In this document: piece after piece, positions 7,166 through 59,575 of the stretch
Layout: each line of letters starts with the position of its first letter
How positions within the stretch are numbered: the stretch's first letter is position 1
Sequence record: PP464953.1
Length of the DNA stretch: 64,000 nt
Strand: one strand, 5' to 3'
DNA from: Escherichia phage ECP2309
Position numbers and translations under genes: made by a program
Notes under the pieces: model-generated
The model's database searches: none
Told to the model about the DNA's origin: nothing
Seen by the model: the letters and a program-made list of their open reading frames with translations, nothing else

Positions 7166-7537
7166 TTATTTAAACGGTTGGCCCACATATTTTCTATTCC
7201 TCTCAAATAAGCGATCCGCCTCAGTTAAACAAATCTCATGGGCGTGATCTCTGGTTTTAGCTTCATCGAAAACCTGTTGTGCAAGGCTGCAACGTAGGGA
7301 GACTGGGAGATCACTATAATAGGCGTTGACAAACGTTTGAGCGTCGTACAGGTCTGAAAATACTTTACCCTTTCTATTATTCCCCTTGTCAACAATTGCA
7401 AGGATAACCAATACAATAGTTGCAACCACCCCCAGGAAAATAGATATAATAAACCATAAAAAGGCGGATCTCCCCATCTTGCCAGCGATCCAGGCGTTAA
7501 ACAAGGCAACCAATATAGCCAAAATAATAAATTCCAT
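7166..7537 (-). CDS. membrane protein (two predicted TM helices)
   Basis: track ORF trimmed to M12 with SD AAGAGGT; hydrophobic stretches FIILAILVALF and WFIISIFLGVVATIVLVILAIV. Confidence 0.55.
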   Translation of the reverse strand: MEFIILAILVALFNAWIAGKMGRSAFLWFIISIFLGVVATIVLVILAIVDKGNNRKGKVFSDLYDAQTFVNAYYSDLPVSLRCSLAQQVFDEAKTRDHAHEICLTEADRLFERNRKYVGQPFK

Positions 7538-7601
7538 TCTATGTACCTCTTTTACAGTTCTGATCAACAATAAGGCGGCAAATATGCCGCCTGTTACCTG
7601 A

Positions 7602-18008: not shown

Positions 18009-18373
18009 TATTTGTCTCCTTGTTCTTCGTTGGTGTTTGCTGTGTGTGCAAACCCTGCTTGAATTAATTTGTCCTGCACTTGAGCCAACAGGCCCATTGC
18101 AAAACTTGTCGTCCCAGAAAGGGCCATTAGCATATCTCGTTGCTGAGCTACCCAACCTAAGGCATAATCTAAACGACGATATTTTTCTTCTTCGCGCAGA
18201 GCCTGAAATAACTGTTCAGCCTCTGGTTGTTGTGTGAGCTCCTGAAGTCTTCCCATAAAAGAAGAAAGTACCAGCAGAAGAGACACTTGATCTTTGCTTA
18301 ACCCTAAGAAAAATTCTTGAGGTTGTTCTTGCTCGTTCATCGCAACCGACGCTTGATCGTTCATTTGTTCCAT
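18008..18373 (-). CDS. hypothetical protein
   Basis: track ORF trimmed to M16 with SD GGAG. Confidence 0.5.
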   Translation of the reverse strand: MEQMNDQASVAMNEQEQPQEFFLGLSKDQVSLLLVLSSFMGRLQELTQQPEAEQLFQALREEEKYRRLDYALGWVAQQRDMLMALSGTTSFAMGLLAQVQDKLIQAGFAHTANTNEEQGDK

Positions 18374-29614: not shown

Positions 29615-29933
29615 GCTCAAAAAGAATCAAACTGTGCATGCCTGCAGAGAGATCAACACACCCTGCAACAATAAGGGTTTGATAGTAAGGTTCAGCACCC
29701 TCAATATCTTCGTTAAAATCCACAACAAGGTAGTCACCTTTGTTAAAGGTGTATTTGTCCGATGTAAACGCAAAACCTGCCCAGTCACCTACTGCAGGAT
29801 CTTTATCAGTCACCTTTGTTAGCAGTAGATCTTTTTCACGAGATCTTTTAGTAAAATCGTGAATCACAACATCCTTCTCTTCAGGAGTCGGATTGCCACA
29901 CACGTAGTTAACGATATTTCTCCACAAACTCAT
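29592..29933 (-). CDS. hypothetical protein
   Basis: track ORF 113 aa. Confidence 0.55.
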   Translation of the reverse strand: MSLWRNIVNYVCGNPTPEEKDVVIHDFTKRSREKDLLLTKVTDKDPAVGDWAGFAFTSDKYTFNKGDYLVVDFNEDIEGAEPYYQTLIVAGCVDLSAGMHSLILFELDSEDLE

Positions 29934-31300
29934 ACGTCCCCCTTTTCTGCTCTAGTTTCAAAATCTTTCCTGACTTTCTCGTCTAAGCCAGGAAAAGTTG
30001 TATTATAAAACTCTACGACTCTCGGGTCAACAATAATATCCACCTCTCTTAATGGACGCAACAAGTTTATTCCTTGTATCGTCTTAACCCGACTCAAGGC
30101 AACATACGTCATTCCGGGAGAGAAAGCTCCGTTCTTTCCGAGGTCCAGGTTGTAACAATCTAGCGTAAGTCCTTGACTTTTATGTGATGTTACTGCGTAC
30201 CCTGATTTCAAAGGGAGTTGCTCATAAGACCCGATCACAACCCTCTCTATGAACTTCTCCATCTTCCTTTCGGCAATATTGTACCTCTGGGAAGGTTTGT
30301 ACTCGTTATTCTCCCACAATCTCGGCTCAATTTCAACCTGTGCCCCGTCTTCCAGCTCAACTACTACAGATTTGGTCTTGAATTTTACCACTGTGGCGCG
30401 TGTCCCGTTGACATAGTACGGAACTTTGTGGGTAGGGTCAACATCGTTTGAGGTTATCATAACCTTCATCCCTATCTTCAGCCTCATTTCCTGCTCCACA
30501 GGCAGTGTGGAAGGGAACTTACCTTTCATTTTACCAATGTAGGTCTTCTCTGGGGCCTTGATGGCATCATAGAAACGTCTGTTCACCTCCTCTGCTTGCT
30601 TATTGGTGGCACAGATGGTCAAGGCATCTGTTGGGACACCACCATGATAGCAACGAGTGTTAAGCTCTGCTACAACCTCTTTTATGCGACGACCTTCACG
30701 AACACAGTTCAACATTGTGGCGAAGCGAACAGATTCCTGACGGAACTGGTCTACTAAGGCTATATTGTGAAGATTAAGATCCTCCCAAGATTTTGTATAG
30801 CAACACAGATCTGTGTGGTAGAAGTTGAAGTAGGCCTCCTTCTCCATAGAAGAGACAACTGGAGGTGCTTGGTAGAAGTCTCCAAACAATAACACCTGAA
30901 TGCCTCCGAAAGGCTTGTCATTTTTCCGAAGAAAGCGGAGTTTTCTATCCATCTCTATGAACTTGTCAGCACGGATCATGGAGATTTCATCGATAATTAG
31001 GATGGTAAATGCCTTGCTTTTCAGAGGCTTTGCTGTTTTTGCCCTTATTGCTGTCCAGTCTGACTCCATGCTCACACCTGCGGCAAGATCGAAAGTTCGG
31101 TGAGCTGTTGCTCCATTAACGTTTAAAGCGGCTACCCCTGTCGGGGCAACCGTTATGCAAGAGTCTCCATACATGGACTGGATTATGTTGATAAGATATG
31201 TCTTCCCTGTTCCACCAGGTCCACTTACGAAGACATTCTCACCGCTCATGATTGCAACAAGGGCAGCATCTGTGCCTACATCGTACTGCCCTTTTTCCAT
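29930..31300 (-). CDS. Dda/Pif1/RecD-like SF1 DNA helicase
   Basis: 456 aa; Walker A GPGGTGKT; ...VTSHKSQGLTLD near the C-terminus. Confidence 0.85.
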   Translation of the reverse strand: MEKGQYDVGTDAALVAIMSGENVFVSGPGGTGKTYLINIIQSMYGDSCITVAPTGVAALNVNGATAHRTFDLAAGVSMESDWTAIRAKTAKPLKSKAFTILIIDEISMIRADKFIEMDRKLRFLRKNDKPFGGIQVLLFGDFYQAPPVVSSMEKEAYFNFYHTDLCCYTKSWEDLNLHNIALVDQFRQESVRFATMLNCVREGRRIKEVVAELNTRCYHGGVPTDALTICATNKQAEEVNRRFYDAIKAPEKTYIGKMKGKFPSTLPVEQEMRLKIGMKVMITSNDVDPTHKVPYYVNGTRATVVKFKTKSVVVELEDGAQVEIEPRLWENNEYKPSQRYNIAERKMEKFIERVVIGSYEQLPLKSGYAVTSHKSQGLTLDCYNLDLGKNGAFSPGMTYVALSRVKTIQGINLLRPLREVDIIVDPRVVEFYNTTFPGLDEKVRKDFETRAEKGDV

Positions 31301-32505
31301 TACGCCTCCTCGTAGATAATGTCGATAGTGTTACCGTCGCGGTCAACCACGTACTCAATTGGGTCGCCATCTTTGCGTGATTCTGGAGCTACTACGATTT
31401 CGTAGCGGCATGCACGGCACTTGGCACTGTTGTGTTGGTAAGGCACACTAACTACATCAGCAGGGTCAACCATAACCGTCATCACAGTTCCATAGCTCTT
31501 TGCATACTCTTTGCTGGCACAGTGCAGGCCATAAGAGCATGCAGCTTCCGGATCATCCTCTACAAAGTTACGGGGCATGGATACAAAAGCCCCCTGGTAT
31601 TGTGGGACTTTACCACTGTGCCAATCCACCCACTTGTCGCCGTTAAACTGAACCCCTTTGTAGCAAATGATTCGACCATCTTCTGCAATCTGAATGTCGT
31701 TTGCCTGCATAAAATCGTAGAGCATGTTTACAGATTTTGCAGAAGGATTGCGTAGCAGGCGAACGAGGAATTTCACATAGCGGTCATCCAGTGTTCCGTC
31801 TGCATAATCTTTCTCAATTTTCTTTGCAATGGTGGATCGCATCTCTACACCGTAGTAGTAGAGCTTACCATCTTTCATGATCAGGTTGTCTGCAAGTGTG
31901 GTGAACTCATTCTTGCGTTCCAGCCAGACAAGGATTTCACCAATTGCCTCGTCATATTCCTGAACAGAGATATGTTCGAAGACTTTCTGGTAAACTTCCT
32001 CGCTTTCACTGCGGCGAATTTCAAAAATACCTTCGTTGCAGGTGATCTGGAGGAGTTCCCCGCAAATAACCACCAAAGGCTCGATGCTTCGGGTCTGTTG
32101 CTGAGACACACTGCTCACCACCTCCAGCACCGGGTCTTTGACTTCTACTAAAGGTTCTTCTGACTTGATTGCTACCCCAGTGAACCCTACACCGTGAACA
32201 ACACACAGCGGATATACCACGCCCCAACGTTTAACGGAACCTTCTCCTAAATCTAAGATCATGGCGTACTTACCGTTATCTTCCAGCCCATATCGAAATA
32301 AACGGGCCTCTTCACGGGTTTCAAAATCCTCACGGGTGTAGCAGACGCTGTCACGGTCAGGATCGAACAACTCTGGGGCACCTACTGCCAGTGTCCAGGT
32401 TGTGTTACCTTTCTCAATAGCGCATGTGAAACCCTTCTTCTCAAGCTCTGCACGGCGGTCACGTGCTTCTTTACGAGTTTTGAAATGTTCGTAGATGAAA
32501 ATCAT
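31300..32505 (-). CDS. hypothetical protein with tandem N-terminal ~45-aa repeat
   Basis: track ORF trimmed to M13 with SD AAGGAG 8 nt upstream; FKTRKEARDRRAELEKKGF and FETREEARLFRYGLEDNGK repeat. Confidence 0.6.
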   Translation of the reverse strand: MIFIYEHFKTRKEARDRRAELEKKGFTCAIEKGNTTWTLAVGAPELFDPDRDSVCYTREDFETREEARLFRYGLEDNGKYAMILDLGEGSVKRWGVVYPLCVVHGVGFTGVAIKSEEPLVEVKDPVLEVVSSVSQQQTRSIEPLVVICGELLQITCNEGIFEIRRSESEEVYQKVFEHISVQEYDEAIGEILVWLERKNEFTTLADNLIMKDGKLYYYGVEMRSTIAKKIEKDYADGTLDDRYVKFLVRLLRNPSAKSVNMLYDFMQANDIQIAEDGRIICYKGVQFNGDKWVDWHSGKVPQYQGAFVSMPRNFVEDDPEAACSYGLHCASKEYAKSYGTVMTVMVDPADVVSVPYQHNSAKCRACRYEIVVAPESRKDGDPIEYVVDRDGNTIDIIYEEA

Positions 32506-32515
32506 CTTGGTCTCC

Positions 32516-34498
32516 TTATTTGATGTTATTCTTTGTATCAATCAGTTCACGGTATTCAATCATAGCAGGAGTGTCCCAATATTTCAAGCCTACATGCTTC
32601 AAAAGTGGATATTTCTTTTCCAATCTTGCAATATAGGCCTTCCCGCACTTAACCCGGTTGGCGATTAAGATTTTGGCACGATGATTTAGCTCACCGTACT
32701 TCCACGTGGTGCTACCTTCCCACTTGTGAAAATGTGGCCGATAACTTCCAAAATCCTGCATGGGGATAATTTTACCTAACTGTCTGTACAGGCTGTCATA
32801 TGAAGTTTCATTTGCTGCGCGAGTTAGTAAGAATTTCCAAGCATCCTCTTTCAACAAATGTTCCACATTCTTCTCTGTAACATATTGGCAATCAGGATCA
32901 GTCCAAAGCAGACGAGATTCCGACACCAGGTACAGATCTTCCCCTTCAGGAATCTGGAGTGCCGCACGCACACGGTCATAATCTTGCTGGTAGATGTTGC
33001 TCATCTGCCCTAGCCAACAACTTCCGCGTTGGATATCCCCCTCATACGGTATGCAGTGCTTAATCTTCCTGAACTCTGCCTTAGTAATACGCTCACGCCG
33101 GAAGTAACCATCCTTCTCAAGTTTTTTAACCCAATAGCCTGGTTCGTAACGGGTTTTGGTTTCACCTTTCTTCGTAGGTCGGCGTGGAAGCTCCGATAAC
33201 AATTTGACCGTATCTGCAAAAAACGGATGGTGTGCCGCCTCTTTAAACTCTTTCACCAGATCCGTGTTACGGCAATAGAAAACGTTGCGTCCGGTAATCT
33301 CGCTTAAGTAGTTACACTTATTCCGGTTATATTTGCCGTCTCCGTCGTTAAATACTAAATAAACTCCCCGTAAGAATTCTACCTTTCCGTAGCAGGCGTA
33401 ACCTATGCGGCCTTTATTTAAGCCGCCAGCGAAGATCTCGCAGTCCCCCAAATTTCCTAGCCCTGTTTCTTCCCAGCGGTCATACATAAAATTCTTACCG
33501 AAGATGTGCCCGAACACTCCACTGTTCTTCATCATCTCGCGTGCTTCTGAGGATGTTTTTGCTGTCTCCAGTTCTGCAACAACTTCTGCTCCACGAAGGC
33601 GAATGCCTTCTTTGACAAAAGCTTCCAAACGCTCTTGGAATCCACCATCGTCGTGACCTTCTATGGTCCATTCACGCCCTGGGTTAATATTGCAATCTCC
33701 GATAGGGATCTCTACACAAATTGCAGGATAATCTATTAGTGTCTCCAGGAACTTAGAACGGTAAGGTTGGTGACCCATTACCACACGACTCTCGTCAGAG
33801 CTGGTATAACCCTTCAGGATGGTCATTTTCCAACCATCCTTCTCGTAGTGATACTGCGCCTCAACCTTGTCACCTTCCAGCATCTTACTGGTCATAGGGT
33901 CGGTAACGGTAAACGGAAACTTTGCATAGCGTAGGCATGACGCAATAGCAGTGCGATATTTCAGGACATGCTCTTTCTTAACATGGAACTGAACTTTTAC
34001 CCCGTTGTGCTCTTCAGTCTTCCGCTCGCGGATCTTGGTAACGTTTGGGATACCCTGATCCAAGAACAATAGATATGTGCTTTCAACACCATTGTGCACA
34101 CTGATAACATCGAAAGTGTCCACCATGCTGAACGGAGCCTTTGAACCAACACCTTTATTACCTACCAGAGCGTTGCTGTTGCGCTTGGTTGACTCCCCGA
34201 GGTTCATGAAAGTGTTGCGGACCATCTCTTCTGACATGCCCAATCCAACGTCCTGCACAAAGAAGTATGGTTCAAGGTCTGTAGGGGAGTGAATGATGAT
34301 CGGTACATCACCCCGTCCAGACTCAACATGAGAGTCCACAGCATTGAAGATTGGTTCACGGCAGCTTGCCAGCACCTTATCTTCGTAAATCCCTTTAATG
34401 ATTAGCCCAAAAGTCTCTTTGTTCAGAGAAATTGAGCCCCTGGTGACCTCCATATTTCCGGTTAGTACTGCTTTAGTTTCATTACTGTTTACAATCAT
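32516..34498 (-). CDS. GHKL-superfamily (Hsp90/MORC-type) ATPase fusion protein
   Basis: 660 aa; N-box-like REPIFNAVDS, G1 DVGLGMS, G2 GNKGVGSKAPF; LIIKGIYEDK resembles the Hsp90 signature; C-terminal ~500 aa unassigned. Confidence 0.6.
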   Translation of the reverse strand: MIVNSNETKAVLTGNMEVTRGSISLNKETFGLIIKGIYEDKVLASCREPIFNAVDSHVESGRGDVPIIIHSPTDLEPYFFVQDVGLGMSEEMVRNTFMNLGESTKRNSNALVGNKGVGSKAPFSMVDTFDVISVHNGVESTYLLFLDQGIPNVTKIRERKTEEHNGVKVQFHVKKEHVLKYRTAIASCLRYAKFPFTVTDPMTSKMLEGDKVEAQYHYEKDGWKMTILKGYTSSDESRVVMGHQPYRSKFLETLIDYPAICVEIPIGDCNINPGREWTIEGHDDGGFQERLEAFVKEGIRLRGAEVVAELETAKTSSEAREMMKNSGVFGHIFGKNFMYDRWEETGLGNLGDCEIFAGGLNKGRIGYACYGKVEFLRGVYLVFNDGDGKYNRNKCNYLSEITGRNVFYCRNTDLVKEFKEAAHHPFFADTVKLLSELPRRPTKKGETKTRYEPGYWVKKLEKDGYFRRERITKAEFRKIKHCIPYEGDIQRGSCWLGQMSNIYQQDYDRVRAALQIPEGEDLYLVSESRLLWTDPDCQYVTEKNVEHLLKEDAWKFLLTRAANETSYDSLYRQLGKIIPMQDFGSYRPHFHKWEGSTTWKYGELNHRAKILIANRVKCGKAYIARLEKKYPLLKHVGLKYWDTPAMIEYRELIDTKNNIK

Positions 34499-34995
34499 TT
34501 ATTGCGCTCCTTGTAGTAGATATGACTCCCGAACTGAGCTGTCCTCTGCATCTTTTTTGCCCATTTCGGTCGTACTTTGGTTGTATGGTAGTGTGTTGCT
34601 CCACCTGTTATGTCCATAGCCATGTATGCAACATGGTTGTTATTATAGACCTTTAGAAGCATCTTTGCAAGACTTTTAGCGTGATCCCATGAATCTTTTT
34701 CTGTCACCTTAAAAGTTTTGCCGTGGTTTGTCCACGAAAACTGGTTAGGTTGGTAGACAATCTTTCTTATGGTGTCTGGGTATTTGGGGTGAGATTTCCT
34801 GTTTAGGGTGGCAAACCCAGATGCCAGCATACCCATCGTGCCATCCCCTCTAGCTTCCCTGTAGATATTGCATGCTAGAATGTTTTCCTTAGTATCTGAT
34901 GGCTTGCAAGTATGGTATACTTTTTGTTTTGGTGCTGCAACAACAGGCAGCGATAAAAATGCGCTCAAAATAATAGCAAAGATCTTAATTTTCAC
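34495..34995 (-). CDS. secreted cell-wall hydrolase, SleB/CwlJ-like
   Basis: GTG start after SD GGAG; signal-like MKIKIFAIILSAFLSLPVVAA; NIYREARGDG...YPDTIRKIVYQPNQFSW matches the SleB family pattern. Confidence 0.65.
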   Translation of the reverse strand: MKIKIFAIILSAFLSLPVVAAPKQKVYHTCKPSDTKENILACNIYREARGDGTMGMLASGFATLNRKSHPKYPDTIRKIVYQPNQFSWTNHGKTFKVTEKDSWDHAKSLAKMLLKVYNNNHVAYMAMDITGGATHYHTTKVRPKWAKKMQRTAQFGSHIYYKERNK

Positions 34996-34997
34996 AA

Positions 34998-35031
34998 TAA
35001 CTCCAAATAGAAAATCCCCGCCGAAGCGGGG
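34998..35031 (-). terminator. rho-independent terminator
   Basis: CCCCGC-CGAA-GCGGGG followed on minus strand by ATTTTCTATTT; same hairpin recurs at 61158-61173. Confidence 0.6.
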
Positions 35032-35044
35032 GAGGTCTTAGAAA

Positions 35045-35425
35045 TTAATCGTAGTGTGCCAAAATCTCTCCATCGTTGCAAGTTCCCTCTACAAAGTTAT
35101 GAAGATTCATGCACTCATCTTGATAGAAGAATTTACCGCTTTTCAGCCGTAAGCCAAACAACTCCGCATCTCCACGATGGCAAGCCTCTACAAGTTCATA
35201 GATTTCATACGGCAACTCTCCGTCGTCATGGAAGAACCCAGCCTTATCGTTGACATAGATGAAGAAATAATCACTGCTGTCGCAAGCGTCCAATATTTTA
35301 AACCAGATTTCATCTACATCTTTTTCTCGGATATCGATCACGCAAGTGGAGCTGCATTCGTACTCCTTCTCCGGCTCCTCGGTCAATACCACCAGGTAGT
35401 TTCCCCGCTTACCTACTTTAGCCAT
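35045..35425 (-). CDS. hypothetical acidic protein
   Basis: track ORF 126 aa. Confidence 0.55.
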   Translation of the reverse strand: MAKVGKRGNYLVVLTEEPEKEYECSSTCVIDIREKDVDEIWFKILDACDSSDYFFIYVNDKAGFFHDDGELPYEIYELVEACHRGDAELFGLRLKSGKFFYQDECMNLHNFVEGTCNDGEILAHYD

Positions 35426-35434
35426 ACAACCTCC

Positions 35435-36619
35435 TTAAGCTTTAGCCAAAATGGCGCTAAACTCTTCACCAAACTCTTTTACAATCTTCATCAGGTTTGG
35501 GTATGCTTTGATCAGCTGAGCAACGATCTTGTCACGACCTTTACCGATAAGCAAGGCATTTCCTAAGGCATTAGGTTTCATCATCGCCATAAAGACTGAA
35601 AATACAAAATCTCGGTTCTCGTCCTTGAAGTTTTCCCAAAGGAAATCGAGAAAGTTTGCCACACAGCTAACAAGATCTTCGTCGGAGATACTTGCATTTT
35701 CCATCATATTACGAATAGCGATGCAACCTTCAGATCCAAGAATCCACAAGATGTCTGGCTGTTTAGGACCTACGTATTCTTTGCAACCTCCTGCCATAAT
35801 CCGACCGATTTCCGGTAAGTTGCGTTTCTTGGTGTGGTAAGTCCAGATCTCTACCGCTGCAGTGTGACCAATAGCACCTTGCAGAAGAACACGGGCCATA
35901 GCGTCAGAAATAATACCGCTGTCAAAATCGTGCAAGATATCAGATGCAGCAACCCAAGATCGCGGTGTGGCAAAAGATGGACAATTAATCTCAGCCATGG
36001 CCTCATAATTATCGATAGCTGATGGAACTCTTTTCAGATATCCAATTACAGAGGAGTGCACCCCATTAAGGAATGCGTAGTCCTCAATAAACACCTCTGC
36101 ATTGCTTGTAACCTCTACAATGATAAAACGGTTAGCCAGAGGGGCTTCGAGCGCCGAAAGAACCGCACCATCTGTAGAACGGTTACCAGCAGCCACAAAA
36201 ACAGACCCCTTAGGGAATGCATAAGTACCGCACTTGTGGTCAAGCATAATTTGCATTGCAACCTTTTGTAGGTAGTTATCTGCATGAGTGAGCTCATCCA
36301 GAAAGATAATTCCGCTCCAGTCAGGATCCGCAGGCCAAAATTCTGGAATTGCAAACACTGTACGTGTAGTTCCATCCGCTTCTACAGGGATAGGTAGCCC
36401 AGATAAGTCGGCAGGATCTTTATCTGACAGCCGCACGTCAACAAGGTTGTCATCTCGCTCACCGAACATATTATCAGCGATCTGCTTCATCACCTGGCTT
36501 TTACCTACACCCATTGGTCCCAAAATTAGGACAGATCGGCTATGACGTTGGGCAAACTGAATAATAGCTGGCAACTCACGGACAGTGATTTGACCACTTT
36601 CGAATACGTTTCTTGACAT
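35435..36619 (-). CDS. MoxR-type AAA+ ATPase (CobS-like)
   Basis: 394 aa; Walker A GPMGVGKS; Walker B IIFLDELTHAD. Confidence 0.75.
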   Translation of the reverse strand: MSRNVFESGQITVRELPAIIQFAQRHSRSVLILGPMGVGKSQVMKQIADNMFGERDDNLVDVRLSDKDPADLSGLPIPVEADGTTRTVFAIPEFWPADPDWSGIIFLDELTHADNYLQKVAMQIMLDHKCGTYAFPKGSVFVAAGNRSTDGAVLSALEAPLANRFIIVEVTSNAEVFIEDYAFLNGVHSSVIGYLKRVPSAIDNYEAMAEINCPSFATPRSWVAASDILHDFDSGIISDAMARVLLQGAIGHTAAVEIWTYHTKKRNLPEIGRIMAGGCKEYVGPKQPDILWILGSEGCIAIRNMMENASISDEDLVSCVANFLDFLWENFKDENRDFVFSVFMAMMKPNALGNALLIGKGRDKIVAQLIKAYPNLMKIVKEFGEEFSAILAKA

Positions 36620-36888
36620 TAGTAAAAGTCCTCTACTTGTGTGTAAGTGTTTTCAAAGTTTTCCAAAACAGATATCACATCGGATCTGTCAATATCATAC
36701 GTGACTCTCCAGTTGTACGCAACCCTTTCTGCTGTTGCCTCTTCTGGCGCTAGTCGTCTGCTGGCATAAAAGAGTGTTGGAGTACACTTTCTTGCTTGCC
36801 CTCTAACTTTCCCATAATAATATCTGTGAATATCTTTGTCAAAATTTAACTCTTTTTCTGCACGAAGTTCATATTGCTGGTATAACAT
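36619..36888 (-). CDS. hypothetical protein
   Basis: track ORF 89 aa. Confidence 0.5.
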   Translation of the reverse strand: MLYQQYELRAEKELNFDKDIHRYYYGKVRGQARKCTPTLFYASRRLAPEEATAERVAYNWRVTYDIDRSDVISVLENFENTYTQVEDFY

Positions 36889-39117: not shown

Positions 39118-39196
39118 AAGTAAGTGCTCCTATGTTAGTTTTCTTTCGAATGGGTGCACTATATTGTGGAGTTAGAGTAAAGTCAACACGTTTTTG

Positions 39197-53427: not shown

Positions 53428-53694
53428 TTAAGCTTTTTGCTCTTCGTTTTTAACGTGGTCAGGGTGCTGGCAACCCCACCGGAGCGAGATGAATTTGCTA
53501 ATAAGCTGGGGGCAGGCTACTGAAGGTGCATATATCCACGCATACCATTCAGGAAGCGTATCATTATACCCCATATGAATAAACACCCCAGTCATCACCG
53601 CCATGCCTATGTTCGACCATAGCTTAGATTGGGATACTTTCGTAGGGTCATCAGATGCCGCAACCAGTCCCCATAAAAACTGAGTTAGTTTCAT
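53428..53694 (-). CDS. small protein with one hydrophobic helix
   Basis: track ORF 88 aa. Confidence 0.45.
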   Translation of the reverse strand: MKLTQFLWGLVAASDDPTKVSQSKLWSNIGMAVMTGVFIHMGYNDTLPEWYAWIYAPSVACPQLISKFISLRWGCQHPDHVKNEEQKA

Positions 53695-56816: not shown

Positions 56817-58889
56817 TTATGAGAAGTCTGGCGGGACAACATCTTCTACATACCCTTTCAGAGCAACCTGCCCCATATGAAGCACGGTAGAATCTCTAGC
56901 GGTAACAGTGATGCTGTCAGACATTACTTGCGGGTATGCCCACACATACTGTTTTACCTCAGGGTATCTATACTCTATAGTTGCCATGTTTCCGCAAATA
57001 CATCTCCATAAAAATTCTTGGTAATTCCTAGTTGGGTCATAGCCATATACCGGAGCAAGCTCTTTACTAGGAACGAACCCTGCAAGGTATTGTATTTCAG
57101 ACGGTTGCCAACCTAACCTAACGATAGGTATGTTTACAGACTCTTTTGCCTTTTCAATACCTCCCTGCATCACCCAATCGTAGCACTCGGTGCAGAAGAA
57201 ATCAAGAGCACCTGCTTCCTTTTTATATTGGTCAGCAAGGTTCAGCTTTTGTGTAAGCTCGGTTTCCATAATGGTTGGGAAAAACAGCAAAGCTGTCATC
57301 TGAGCTGATGCAGCGTGTGCCTTTACTGCCTTTGAAATAGCCGCAATACGAGCGCCAAGCTTACCACGACAAAATGCCACATACTTGTCGTAAACACCGC
57401 CAGTTTTAGGATCGTCAATAGTCCCAATATCTAATGCATACTCACCTGTCTCATCATAAAACGCCTGCTTTGTAGGGTAATCATAAATACAAGGCCTACG
57501 AGTATCGGTATTGTACCACCACCACGGTTCACCAACCTGCATAATCACTGGCAGGTTGTTTCTCATAGCGGCTGATGCAAAATTCTTAAATACTGCAGTA
57601 AGGAAATTCATACCCTCTTCAATGGTTGGAGATAGGAGGTAGCTACAAGGTGTATACCCTGTTTTAGCGTAGTTATCGTTCCAGTCTCTTTGGGTCCATT
57701 CCAACGGGCAGGCATCGCTGAAAAGCTCAAAACTTACAGATTGCATAACGTCGAAGTTATGTCGTTTGGCATTGTACATAAAATCATCATGCCATTTATA
57801 AGCTGCAGCGTTTAGCGCTCCTGTTCTGTTTATAGACCATTGGGTTCCGGACCATGTGTAGTCATAATAATGACTCATACCAACATAATGGTTTATGGTT
57901 CCGGTATATCCCAGACGCTTGATATTGTTCAACACCCTTAAAGGAGAGACGTTCCACATATCGTCATATGCGGTGCAGATCCCAACGTCGTGCTCTCTCA
58001 CCTGAATATTATTAAGTTGCATCATTTTCCAGCCTGTGTCTGGCTGAAGCAAATCTAGGCGCAACTCACACTCTACATTTTCCGTTCTCGGGTCTGTGCT
58101 ATTACTTACCCAGTCTTTAGGCATGAGTGGTATTAAAATCCTTCTCACCTGCCGAGGATCAACACCCATCATGTTGTTGTTCTGGTCCATCCCGACGCAG
58201 TCCTCGAAATCAATATGAATTTCTGCAACATTCTTATCCTCTGAGATGCTGACAGCATATTGAGCTAAAGGAACATAGATGATTGTGCCATCAACAAGGT
58301 CTACAGTCATAATCATCTTTTCAGGAGTGGAGAAGTTGCTGGCGTTGGTTATTGACATTCTGAACCAAAGTTTGGTGTTTCTCATCTCATAGTGATCATC
58401 AAACCCAATACCGAAATGGTCATACTTGTCAACTGTTTCCCAAATGCATCCAGCCATACCCCCATATGTTCTTGACACTAAACGGTTAATACAACAGTTG
58501 TTATCTGCAACAATACAGGTACTTTCAGTCTGCTGAGTAGTTGTAACCCAATATCTTGGGTGGAACATTCTCTCCTCGACAGTATCCCAAGATATCCTGT
58601 CAAGATTCTCATCTGAAACTATTGTACATTTCGCCCTTTGTGTCCCGATCATCACCCCTTGAGATTTTGATGAAAACTCCATAAAGAAGCTTCTTGGCAA
58701 CCTGTTGGGTAATTTGTCAACAATTTCCACCGGAATCTCAATACTGGTTGCCCCGACTGGGATAGTTACATCGCCCTCAACATGATCATAATCCCTACCA
58801 GGAACGGCAGTATCCTGAACTGTGCGGTAATGAAACTGCGCAGCCATTGTAGAGTAATCACGGTAAGGTTTAAAAACAGCTGTTGCCAT
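56817..58889 (-). CDS. virion structural protein (baseplate/tail)
   Basis: 690 aa; position between baseplate-like genes and fibre genes. Confidence 0.6.
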   Translation of the reverse strand: MATAVFKPYRDYSTMAAQFHYRTVQDTAVPGRDYDHVEGDVTIPVGATSIEIPVEIVDKLPNRLPRSFFMEFSSKSQGVMIGTQRAKCTIVSDENLDRISWDTVEERMFHPRYWVTTTQQTESTCIVADNNCCINRLVSRTYGGMAGCIWETVDKYDHFGIGFDDHYEMRNTKLWFRMSITNASNFSTPEKMIMTVDLVDGTIIYVPLAQYAVSISEDKNVAEIHIDFEDCVGMDQNNNMMGVDPRQVRRILIPLMPKDWVSNSTDPRTENVECELRLDLLQPDTGWKMMQLNNIQVREHDVGICTAYDDMWNVSPLRVLNNIKRLGYTGTINHYVGMSHYYDYTWSGTQWSINRTGALNAAAYKWHDDFMYNAKRHNFDVMQSVSFELFSDACPLEWTQRDWNDNYAKTGYTPCSYLLSPTIEEGMNFLTAVFKNFASAAMRNNLPVIMQVGEPWWWYNTDTRRPCIYDYPTKQAFYDETGEYALDIGTIDDPKTGGVYDKYVAFCRGKLGARIAAISKAVKAHAASAQMTALLFFPTIMETELTQKLNLADQYKKEAGALDFFCTECYDWVMQGGIEKAKESVNIPIVRLGWQPSEIQYLAGFVPSKELAPVYGYDPTRNYQEFLWRCICGNMATIEYRYPEVKQYVWAYPQVMSDSITVTARDSTVLHMGQVALKGYVEDVVPPDFS

Positions 58890-59575
58890 TAACCCTCCTG
58901 TCTAGTTGCGTTTACTGTAATACTTTCACAATAAATGGTTGTGGTGTCCCAATCAGGTCTTACGTCAGGAACATACAGCAAAGTAGCCAGCCCACCAACT
59001 CCGAATTGGTTTTCTTCCCACACTGATCCGAAGCCAAGAGCTGTATGGTCCCCTTCAAAACCAAAAGCTTGCCCTTGCGATTCTGTAAGACGCAAATGAC
59101 AAGGCAATGGTAGCATGTCTAAGATCTGATCGATAGACTGCAATATGTCAAAGCAAGTTTTTCTAATATTTATGTCAAATCTGAAGTTGTCTCCTTTCCA
59201 CGTATCGAAATTGTCCCTTCCGAACAATTGTCGCAAGGTGGAGATGACATCTTCGCGAGTCCCACCCCTTGATGCTGCGGCCTGCTGAATAATCAGCGTG
59301 GCACGAAAATCAGCATCTGAAAGTCCATTCCTAAGAATACCAAGTTGATTACCAACTTCGTCAAGGTATCTTCCGCTAGCATTGTTAAGCAATCTTCCTT
59401 CAGCCAAACCTACCAGCATCTTATCAACATCCTCCAACCTTTTAAGGTACACGGTTAAGAATGTGACCAAATTAACCTTCTCAGCCAGAAAATCTCCAGG
59501 CAGGTAGTCAAGACCTCCCTGAACAAAATCTGGCAGAGTGTGGATGTGGTTAACATCCGACTTAATCTCTGCCAT
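58889..59575 (-). CDS. baseplate/tail protein
   Basis: 228 aa; ATGA-coupled to neighbours; assignment by position and loose resemblance only. Confidence 0.45.
   Translation of the reverse strand: MAEIKSDVNHIHTLPDFVQGGLDYLPGDFLAEKVNLVTFLTVYLKRLEDVDKMLVGLAEGRLLNNASGRYLDEVGNQLGILRNGLSDADFRATLIIQQAAASRGGTREDVISTLRQLFGRDNFDTWKGDNFRFDINIRKTCFDILQSIDQILDMLPLPCHLRLTESQGQAFGFEGDHTALGFGSVWEENQFGVGGLATLLYVPDVRPDWDTTTIYCESITVNATRQEG

Follow-up and report, generated by a model that had tools for sequence, protein, structure and literature searches.

A predicted Sec-exported SleB-type cell wall hydrolase encoded beside rIIA in an rV5-like Escherichia phage

What is a cell wall hydrolase with a predicted export signal doing beside rIIA, away from the genes for lysis? 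The question is raised by a gene on the (-) strand of Escherichia phage ECP2309 (PP464953.1), of which a stretch of 64,000 nucleotides was analysed (the window). The hydrolase precursor (34495..34995, 166 aa) was defined from the open reading frame listing and from its Pfam and PHROG matches; it has a GTG start and is the orthologue of rV5 gene 2 and bas54_0065 (rV5 Table S3). Its DNA is 100% identical to 34036..34536 of PP261279.1 (ECP2303), as is the DNA of the window across the 5.5 kb compared, and the phage is an rV5-like Vequintavirus. The gene and its arrangement were already known: the 2013 rV5 paper lists gene 2 as "cell wall hydrolase", and the 2020 CB7 paper records the signal peptide and the conservation across the Vequintavirinae.

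Fold, catalytic residue and predicted export

The protein matches Pfam PF07486 (Hydrolase_2) with an E value of 2.1e-19 and 70.4 bits (cut-off 27), residues 51–161 covering profile positions 2–100 of 100, and PHROG 938 with an E value of 1.7e-27. By sequence, the PDB match is SleB (4F55, E 2.5e-6), and the HMMER alignment to the SleB entries 4F55 and 4FET spans residues 38–160. An AlphaFold2 model (mean pLDDT 88.6) retrieves only these two SleB catalytic domains in Foldseek (probability 1.0, target TM-score 0.72–0.79, rmsd 2.6–3.0 Å), the following match having E > 2. Taken together, HMMER, Pfam and Foldseek place a SleB-type catalytic domain at residues 38–161 (34513..34884, (-) strand). Pfam finds no second domain, and residues 21–37 are a short linker. 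The SleB-type motifs quoted in an earlier note on this DNA, NIYREARGDG and VYQPNQFSW, are both present, and QFSWT is invariant in the aligned homologues. Glu47 (codon 34855..34857, (-) strand), the putative catalytic glutamate of N-I-Y-R-E-A, is nearly invariant (at least 90% conserved in the homologue alignment) and aligns with the glutamate of the SleB motif YGESRGE, which we take to be the essential catalytic residue of SleB. [quoted passage not shown] Judged by sequence and predicted fold, the gene encodes the precursor of a small, basic muralytic enzyme with a single domain, a member of the SleB/CwlJ (Hydrolase_2) family.

Residues 1–20 (34936..34995, (-) strand) have the features of a type I (Sec) signal peptide. 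The leader, MKIKIFAIILSAFLSLPVVA, is followed by APKQK, with the cut predicted after V-V-A, between A20 and A21. The n-region holds two lysines (K2 and K4), the hydrophobic core 15 residues (I5–V19, Kyte-Doolittle 2.71 over 12 residues), and the c-region P17 followed by V18-V19-A20 ahead of A21 (a V-x-A site). There is no lipobox cysteine in the leader, the first cysteine of the protein being residue 30, and the leader agrees with all the rule-based criteria for Sec type I export. AlphaFold2 confidence is low for residues 1–20. I, L and F abound in the core, of which Gly/Ala/Ser/Thr make up 33%; hydrophobicity alone does not separate a signal-arrest-release (SAR) segment from a signal peptide, and it is the I/L/F-rich core together with the canonical V-x-A site that argues against a SAR anchor. 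We infer from these features that the signal peptide is cleaved.

An N-terminal hydrophobic segment is found in all ten sampled phage homologues (eight genera), mostly followed by an A-x-A-type site, and in 126 of the 150 best cluster representatives. The leader sequences diverge among phage genera while the signal-peptide character is retained; that of PAK_P4 has no positively charged n-region. Bacillus SleB itself has a signal peptide and is exported by it (PMC12331253). As SleB and most relatives carry a signal peptide or N-terminal hydrophobic segment, its presence here is normal for the family. The earlier note had described the product of 34495–34995 as a SleB/CwlJ-like hydrolase with a secretion-signal-like N-terminus, and Pfam, PHROG, fold and leader features all agree with this. 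Cys30 (codon 34906–34908) and Cys42 (codon 34870–34872), which delimit 34870..34908 on the (-) strand, are probably a periplasmic disulfide pair, as cysteine co-occurrence indicates: in 31 of 31 homologues with a cysteine directly before the N-x-Y motif, another cysteine lies upstream.

Locus, start signals and selection

Directly downstream of the hydrolase gene lies rIIA (32516..34498, (-) strand, 660 aa; PHROG 612, E 2e-123; Pfam HATPase_c_3), followed by rIIB and a Dda/PIF1-type helicase. A MoxR-like ATPase (35435..36619, (-) strand; PHROG 1297, E 2e-110), annotated MoxR in rV5 as gene 4, lies two genes upstream. The order SleB-like gene, rIIA, rIIB, helicase is kept in three genera, Vequintavirus, Henunavirus and Mydovirus. 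The ORFs at the locus include no adjoining holin or spanin, and the gene does stand outside a lysis cassette as the earlier note had it. Its placement in a replication module does not hold, the neighbours pointing instead to an early/middle accessory operon; and of its position between a GHKL and an AAA+ ATPase, the flanking ATPases are real but are rIIA and the MoxR-like protein, the latter not immediately adjacent.

Two candidates at the locus were rejected. The gene upstream (a 126-aa acidic protein, rV5 gene 3) was considered as a conserved partner and is not adjacent in nine other phage loci. In a search of both strands for a small membrane-protein gene, the only nearby ORF with two hydrophobic segments was an antisense one of 73 aa (34398..34619, (+) strand), which is probably spurious.

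The rV5 paper places gene 2 in a unit transcribed 10→1→238→164 from divergent promoters and gives genes 27–66 as the late class. In the window, sigma-70-like sites are located at 39186..39158 and 36842..36814. Read from gene layout and consensus promoter matches, the hydrolase gene would belong to a leftward early/middle accessory operon, outside the late structural genes.

A Shine-Dalgarno sequence GGAG (35001..35004, (-) strand, read from the sequence) is located 5 nt 5' of the GTG. In the gap that separates the hydrolase gene from its upstream neighbour, a terminator scan finds an intrinsic-terminator-like hairpin, CCCCGC-TTCG-GCGGGG with a T-rich tail (35006..35031, (-) strand); the 61-nt region around it folds with −17.5 kcal/mol (z-score −2.2). 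Hairpin, Shine-Dalgarno sequence and GTG start are all conserved in four Vequintavirus genomes, and equivalent hairpins stand 5' of the homologues in KpS8, Hena1 and PAK_P4. GTG or TTG starts, as annotated, occur in 6 of 10 hydrolase homologues (about five independent lineages), as against 9.8% of the 122 annotated ECP2303 genes. At the other end, the stop codon of the hydrolase gene and the start of rIIA share an ATGA (34495..34498, (-) strand, read from the sequence), which suggests translational coupling. The hairpin, the GTG start and the overlap with the rIIA start together suggest that hydrolase expression is deliberately low.

Four Vequintavirus genomes were compared, and in the three comparisons that are more divergent and hold enough substitutions (three of the four genomes differ appreciably) the pN/pS of the gene is 0.03–0.09, similar to rIIA. 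On these ratios the gene is under purifying selection, and its conservation implies a benefit in conditions beyond those tried.

Lysis genes and the role of the hydrolase

The earlier note had left room for a lysis cassette elsewhere, and a search of the genome bears this out in large part: an endolysin and spanins are present, but they are dispersed and no holin could be assigned, so that lysis is partly explained. The endolysin is of the lambda-R type (PHROG 90, E 5e-55; PP261279.1 102353..102823, outside the window) and lies near the DNA ligase gene; the i-/o-spanin pair lies near the large terminase gene. LysECP26, of the same endolysin family, is lytic in vitro (PMC9728275), and the rV5 and LL12 papers name the R-type enzyme as the lysin. 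An rV5-type holin candidate (PP261279.1 125042..125269) has 75 aa, two membrane segments and a charged C-terminus; a gene called "putative holin" in Bas54 tolerates insertions, its identity with this candidate being unconfirmed.

Bas54 is 96.1% identical to this region, and the coordinates correspond exactly. Published transposon data for this phage call the hydrolase orthologue bas54_0065 non-essential, 32 of its 36 TA sites having been hit. No insertion reads at all fall on the TA sites of the R-type endolysin gene bas54_0202, and for the two spanin genes the sites hit are 0 of 29 and 0 of 19. The non-essentiality of the hydrolase gene thus comes from a relative with 96% identity, grown on laboratory hosts only. 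In the table for a clinical isolate the orthologue shows no significant depletion (log2FC −0.88, adjusted p 1.0); its neighbours, the MoxR ATPase and the helicase, are conditionally essential on a clinical isolate. The CRISPRi-ART supplements for T5 hold no essentiality entry named cell wall hydrolase. The hydrolase is not the endolysin of rV5-like phages, as plaque formation survives disruption of the gene in the laboratory (Bas54). Since the orthologue is dispensable and the endolysin takes no insertions, the SleB-like enzyme cannot replace the R-type endolysin.

Our preferred reading, to which we give a probability of about two in three, is that the protein is an accessory muralytic enzyme, exported through Sec to the periplasm and kept at a low dose, which remodels the wall or aids lysis. 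Signal peptidase I would remove the leader and release a mature protein of about 146 residues into the periplasm, where the Cys30–Cys42 disulfide would probably stabilise it. If it works as SleB does, the enzyme would then be a lytic transglycosylase, using Glu47 as catalytic acid to cleave glycan strands in the E. coli sacculus. Lysis itself is the work of the lambda-R-type endolysin and the spanin pair. It speaks against this reading that early release of an active hydrolase into the periplasm ought to endanger the infected cell.

The restraint that an exported hydrolase needs would be supplied if the protein were a second, regulated lysis enzyme, held by a SAR-type tether or inhibited by the energised membrane until a holin or pinholin unleashes it, and serving as a redundant back-up. 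In sister genera, Hena1 gp155 (77 aa, two predicted membrane segments) is encoded directly downstream of the SleB-like gene, as are an unannotated 51-aa hydrophobic ORF in KpS8 and, as reported, CB7_82; the linkage to rIIA and rIIB, which act on membrane energetics, points the same way. In Vequintavirus, however, the overlap of the hydrolase stop with the rIIA start leaves no place for a small membrane-protein gene, and the locus has none. No similarity was detected between the small ORFs of Hena1 and KpS8, nor between either of them and ECP2303 (tblastn of gp155 against that genome gives E > 3). The strongly hydrophobic leader with its V-x-A site is closer to a cleaved signal peptide than to a SAR anchor, and the redundancy is one-sided, as the R-type endolysin cannot be lost. 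We regard this alternative as unlikely.

A related proposal, which we put forward tentatively and with little expectation that it is right, is that the SleB-like gene is what is left of a second lysis module that ancestral Vequintavirinae possessed, in which an exported hydrolase, a small membrane protein, rIIA and rIIB followed one another in this order. The terminator and the weak start would keep the dose low, and periplasmic activity gated by membrane energisation would matter only on particular hosts or in particular physiological states, for example where walls are in stationary phase or cross-linked differently, or where the host has an envelope-based defence. Host range or the timing of lysis would then depend on the hydrolase under certain conditions, and it would be no redundant lysin.

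The rII synteny in three genera can also be read as a sign of a non-lytic or defence-related periplasmic role exercised with rIIA and rIIB, such as a wall modification that keeps out superinfecting phages or counters an envelope defence, of benefit on particular hosts only. Modules of rII genes are conditionally needed anti-defence genes, purifying selection acts on the hydrolase gene although the phage can do without it on K-12, and its MoxR and helicase neighbours become conditionally essential on a clinical isolate. The hydrolase gene itself is not significantly depleted in the clinical-isolate table, and homologues in T5-like phages, Pakpunavirus and others do not adjoin rII genes. The intact Glu47 and fold make cleavage of the wall by the enzyme the simplest reading. 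We know of no mechanism of the defence type that uses a Hydrolase_2 protein, and consider such a role quite improbable.

That the protein is after all the phage endolysin, reaching the wall through Sec without a holin and degrading it at the end of infection, is very unlikely and largely refuted by the Bas54 insertions. The idea draws on annotation, PP261279.1 and PHROG 938 both carrying the label "endolysin" and the homologues in CR9, Hena1, PAK_P4 and Mendera being annotated likewise. It also draws on the presence of the hydrolase in all Vequintavirinae genera, between which the type of canonical endolysin varies, and on the rV5-like holin, which is not assigned and whose predicted version tolerates insertions in Bas54. 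Against it, the gene lies in the early/middle operon and not a late one, and in the rV5, LL12 and LysECP26 papers it is the R-type enzyme that lyses the cell.

A role as a virion-associated lysin, breaching the wall at DNA injection, is extremely improbable: Hydrolase_2 domains do occur inside large virion or ejection-type proteins of other phages, and the PHROG 938 profile has 2185 columns with some Agrobacterium/Ochrobactrum phage matches annotated DarB-like, but a Sec signal peptide exports the protein away from the cytoplasm where virions are assembled, the gene lies outside the structural (tail/baseplate) module, the main text of the rV5 mass-spectrometry work (of limited sensitivity) does not name the hydrolase among the virion proteins, baseplate-associated lysozyme-type candidates are already present in the phage, and the orthologue is non-essential in Bas54.

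The practical value of the preferred reading, an accessory exported hydrolase, lies in annotation. The protein goes by the name "endolysin" in PHROG 938 and in many GenBank records, and this mislabel matters to groups mining phage genomes for enzybiotics. Many large virulent phages of Gram-negative bacteria (Vequintavirinae, T5-like, Phapecoctavirus and Pakpunavirus) keep a SleB-type hydrolase, predicted to be Sec-exported, under purifying selection, and the one relative tested, Bas54, dispenses with it in the laboratory. A clear phenotype for the family would be useful and no surprise.

Comparison with known systems

The family is large. SleB-type hydrolases are matched in 1265 phage records, and the family comprises 11,334 clusters at E ≤ 0.001; a word-indexed protein search returned 10 homologues only, and the extent became visible in an exhaustive search of representatives. 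Literature searches turned up no member characterised in Gram-negative bacteria or in phages that infect them, and phage Hydrolase_2 proteins appear there in annotation-level mentions only.

The closest relatives are the Vequintavirus orthologues, which include bas54_0065 of Bas54 (MaxBurger) and the SleB or CwlJ hydrolases of A6-1, BP9 and rV5_ev146; copies with at least 95% protein identity occur in 115 phage records, 71 of them at 99% or more. The rV5 gene 2 product likewise has 166 aa and the same Pfam domain and is encoded between gene 3 and rIIA. There is no substantial difference from these orthologues; it is the same gene.

Elsewhere in the Vequintavirinae, CB7_83 of Pectobacterium phage CB7 and CR3_087 (Certrevirus) likewise combine a signal peptide with a SleB-like Hydrolase_2 domain, and the related CR9 protein is 51% identical to the hydrolase. 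According to the CB7 paper, every genus of the subfamily has kept the SleB-like protein, and the CB7 homologue is toxic on expression in E. coli (data not shown by its authors), which is the one hint of activity on the wall. In Certrevirus the hydrolase gene is followed by a small protein with two membrane segments, a proposed class II holin, and rIIA/rIIB are absent, whereas here the gene is joined to rIIA by the ATGA overlap and has no small membrane-protein gene.

The T5-like (bas32_0074 of IrisVonRoten), Phapecoctavirus and Pakpunavirus proteins, a second "cell wall hydrolase" in these phages, also combine Hydrolase_2 with an N-terminal signal or anchor, at 33–41% identity. Their genes are a long way from those for the holin and the canonical endolysin, another endolysin being present as well; the neighbours are different and there is no rII linkage.

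Bacillus SleB (4F55, 4FET) shares the catalytic fold, the glutamate motif and export by an N-terminal signal peptide, at about 19–24% identity in the structural alignment. The phage protein lacks the N-terminal peptidoglycan-binding domain of SleB, being single-domain like CwlJ, and its Cys30–Cys42 pair is not seen among the aligned SleB residues. SleB requires muramic-δ-lactam, which E. coli peptidoglycan does not contain, and the specificity of the hydrolase therefore probably differs from that of SleB.

The lambda R/LysECP26-type endolysin, finally, is encoded in the same genome, and both proteins have about 160 aa and are predicted to cleave glycan strands. The endolysin has no signal peptide, an unrelated fold and no insertions in Bas54, whereas the SleB-type hydrolase is predicted to be exported and is dispensable there.

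Catalytic domain, fold and leader

The hydrolase gene (34495..34995 (−)) is intact and encodes 166 amino acids from a GTG start, five bases 5' of which the sequence reads GGAG. In Pfam, the protein scores 70.4 bits (E 2.1e-19; cut-off 27) for PF07486 (Hydrolase_2, the SleB/CwlJ catalytic domain). It also matches PHROG 938 and, in a sequence comparison, the catalytic domains of Bacillus SleB (4F55 and 4FET). Low confidence in the AlphaFold2 model (mean pLDDT 88.6) is confined to residues 1–20. Compared with the PDB, the model finds only SleB (4F55/4FET, probability 1.0, target TM-score 0.72–0.79), all other matches having E > 2. Within NIYREA, Glu47 lines up with the glutamate in the YGESRGE motif of SleB, and both Glu47 and the QFSWT motif are nearly invariant across the homologues. 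By profile, fold and catalytic residue, the protein is a member of Hydrolase_2, in keeping with the SleB/CwlJ-like reading in the earlier note.

The secretion-signal-like N-terminus described there is also present: MKIKIFAIILSAFLSLPVVA↓APKQK is built like a Sec signal peptide, with all three of its regions, and lacks a lipobox. Leaders were compared in ten phages, among them the unclassified phage Nernie; the genera sampled were Vequintavirus, Certrevirus, Mydovirus, Henunavirus, Phapecoctavirus, Tequintavirus, Pakpunavirus, Menderavirus and Plateaulakevirus. Every one of the ten homologues carries an N-terminal hydrophobic segment and most leaders end in an A-x-A-type site (for example, SQA↓S, ALA↓K, AQA↓E, VLA↓K and AMA↓T); the leader sequences are mutually unrelated. 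An exhaustive homologue search returned 11,334 representative clusters (E ≤ 0.001), and the segment is found in 126 of the best 150. As homologue leaders are widespread and Bacillus SleB itself is made with a signal peptide (PMC12331253), the signal peptide is the norm for the family rather than an oddity. Wherever a cysteine directly precedes the N-x-Y motif (Cys42 in the hydrolase), a second is located upstream (Cys30), in 31 of 31 cases. This pairing fits a disulfide made in the periplasm; the protein would be exported and cleaved after A20, with the Cys30–Cys42 bond in the mature form.

Operon setting and expression signals

The 5.5 kb around the hydrolase gene are 100% identical to ECP2303 (PP261279.1), a Vequintavirus, and 95–97% identical to about 100 further rV5-like phages. 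Window coordinates exceed those of PP261279.1 by 459 around 32–37.5 kb and by 460 near 53 kb, and the window starts about 459 bases ahead of the first base of that record. It thus seems to represent another assembly of this phage, either permuted differently or slightly divergent. The GHKL-type and AAA+ ATPases that the earlier note saw flanking the gene are there, the former, downstream, being rIIA (PHROG 612, E 2e-123) and the latter a MoxR-like protein two genes upstream (35435..36619 (−)). rIIA is followed by rIIB (31300..32541 (−)) and a Dda/PIF1-type helicase (29930..31300 (−)). Given these neighbours, the locus is not the replication module proposed in that note, and is instead part of a leftward early/middle operon.

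The N-terminal part of rIIB, an apparent tandem repeat, gives a weak sub-threshold match to SPOR (PF05036, E 0.0015, residues 20–54), a domain that binds denuded glycan. So near the gene of a predicted glycan-cleaving enzyme, this is curious, but it is probably a chance match. An antisense ORF of 73 amino acids with two hydrophobic segments (34398..34619 (+)) lies over the hydrolase/rIIA junction and is probably an opposite-strand reading artefact.

The rV5 paper describes this operon as a unit (genes 10→1→238→164) that starts from divergent promoters, with genes 27–66 as late genes; these promoters map to about 39.15–39.2 kb of the window. The hydrolase stop overlaps the rIIA start in an ATGA (34495–34498 (−)). 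In the gap that separates the hydrolase from the gene upstream of it, a terminator scan located a GC-rich hairpin ending in a T-rich tail (35006..35031 (−)), and the 61-nt region around it (34990..35050) has a minimum-energy fold of −17.5 kcal/mol (z-score −2.2). In this fold, the GGAG is paired to sequence around the stop codon of that upstream gene, at the foot of the terminator hairpin; such modelled pairing could conceivably couple translation of the hydrolase to that gene.

The hairpin, Shine–Dalgarno sequence and GTG start are identical across four Vequintavirus genomes, and a hairpin directly ahead of the ribosome-binding site recurs in KpS8, Hena1 and PAK_P4. GTG or TTG is the annotated start in 6 of the 10 phage homologues (loci L007, L008 of KpS8, L009 of Hena1, L010 and L012, and window 34993..34995), as compared to 9.8% of 122 annotated ECP2303 genes (naive binomial p 1e-4; about 0.008 with only five lineages taken as independent). 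From the conserved hairpin and the start-codon enrichment, we infer that the hydrolase would be made at a low level. The CB7 authors (2020) reported, as data not shown, that their homologue is toxic on expression in E. coli, which agrees with an enzyme needing to be limited in amount. In CR9, Nernie, vB_EcoM_01 and Mendera, the homologue is preceded by its own sigma-70-like promoter. pN/pS of the hydrolase is 0.03–0.09 (four genomes; comparisons with enough substitutions), the same range as rIIA; the gene is thus under purifying selection.

Lysis genes and dispensability

The lysis genes of ECP2303 lie outside the window and are dispersed. They comprise a lambda-R-type endolysin of 156 amino acids without a signal peptide (PP261279.1 102353..102823; PHROG 90, E 5e-55), the i- and o-spanin adjoining the large terminase gene (91611..92293), and a 75-residue protein with two membrane segments and a charged C-terminus (125042..125269; 18143..18370 (+) of our stretch L003 of that record), matching the rV5 gp129 holin prediction. 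LysECP26, the R-type enzyme of sister phage ECP26, was purified and is lytic (PMC9728275). The rV5 and LL12 papers name the R-type enzyme as the lysin, and the latter could identify no holin. Two other small membrane proteins were seen in the window: one of 88 amino acids among the tail-fibre genes (53428..53694 (−)), matching PHROG 1322 'membrane protein', and a 134-residue ORF with two strong membrane segments (7166..7570 (−)).

A 2025 preprint reports genome-wide transposon insertion mapping in Bas54 (MZ501093, phage MaxBurger), which shares 96.1% identity with the window in the hydrolase region; bas54_0065 (58858..59358) matches 34495..34995 position by position. This orthologue has insertions at 32 of 36 TA sites and was called non-essential; on a clinical isolate, it shows no depletion (log2FC −0.88, adjusted p 1.0). 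Not one insertion read falls on the TA sites of the R-type endolysin, bas54_0202, and both spanins have 0 TA sites with insertions and were called essential. bas54_0115, annotated 'putative holin', tolerates insertions. The SleB-like enzyme is therefore no substitute for the R-type endolysin and is dispensable for plaque formation. As the phage endolysin, the hydrolase fails on function. The canonical lysis system that the earlier note had named as evidence against its proposal is largely in place with the R-type endolysin and the spanins, the holin being at most a candidate; the observation made there holds, and its interpretation is partly supported.

In Bas54, rIIA and rIIB are non-essential, as are bas54_0063 (MoxR-like ATPase) and bas54_0068 (helicase) on E. 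coli K-12. On the clinical isolate (data sheet titled CFE303, its command line naming a '311' file), insertions are lost from both bas54_0063 (log2FC −7.2) and bas54_0068 (−6.3; adjusted p 0 for each). These two genes look conditionally essential and are possibly counter-defence genes.

Probable role and known counterparts

Most likely, the protein is an accessory enzyme of the periplasm, with predicted muralytic activity. Its chemistry would be that of a lytic transglycosylase, and it may have some part in wall weakening or lysis. Hena1 (Henunavirus) has gp155 (L009 3511..3744; 77 amino acids, two predicted membrane segments) directly after the SleB-like gene, followed by rIIA and rIIB. KpS8 (Mydovirus) has an unannotated hydrophobic ORF of 51 amino acids in the same place (L008 3536..3691, about 143636..143791 of MT178275.1), with rIIA, rIIB and helicase following across the record ends. 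CB7_82 (Certrevirus), directly after the SleB-like gene, has been proposed as a class II holin. No similarity is detectable between the Hena1 and KpS8 ORFs, and the Vequintavirus locus has no small hydrophobic ORF between hydrolase and rIIA. The arrangement leaves room for a possible descent of the locus from a second, gated lysis module.

PP261279.1 labels the hydrolase 'endolysin' and the R-type enzyme 'lysozyme'; PHROG 938 spreads the former label to Hydrolase_2 proteins. The gene is identical with bas54_0065 and with gene 2 of rV5 ('cell wall hydrolase, 166 aa, pI 10.0, PF07486'). Many large virulent phages retain such a hydrolase with predicted export. The 2020 CB7 paper already describes the signal peptide, the conservation throughout the subfamily and the location apart from other lysis genes; it treats SleB as an amidase. 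In the SleB literature, SleB counts as a lytic transglycosylase. T5-like Salmonella phages and Phapecoctavirus have been noted before as carrying a Hydrolase_2 protein far from their canonical endolysin. The phage hydrolase is not SleB proper, since it lacks the peptidoglycan-binding domain.
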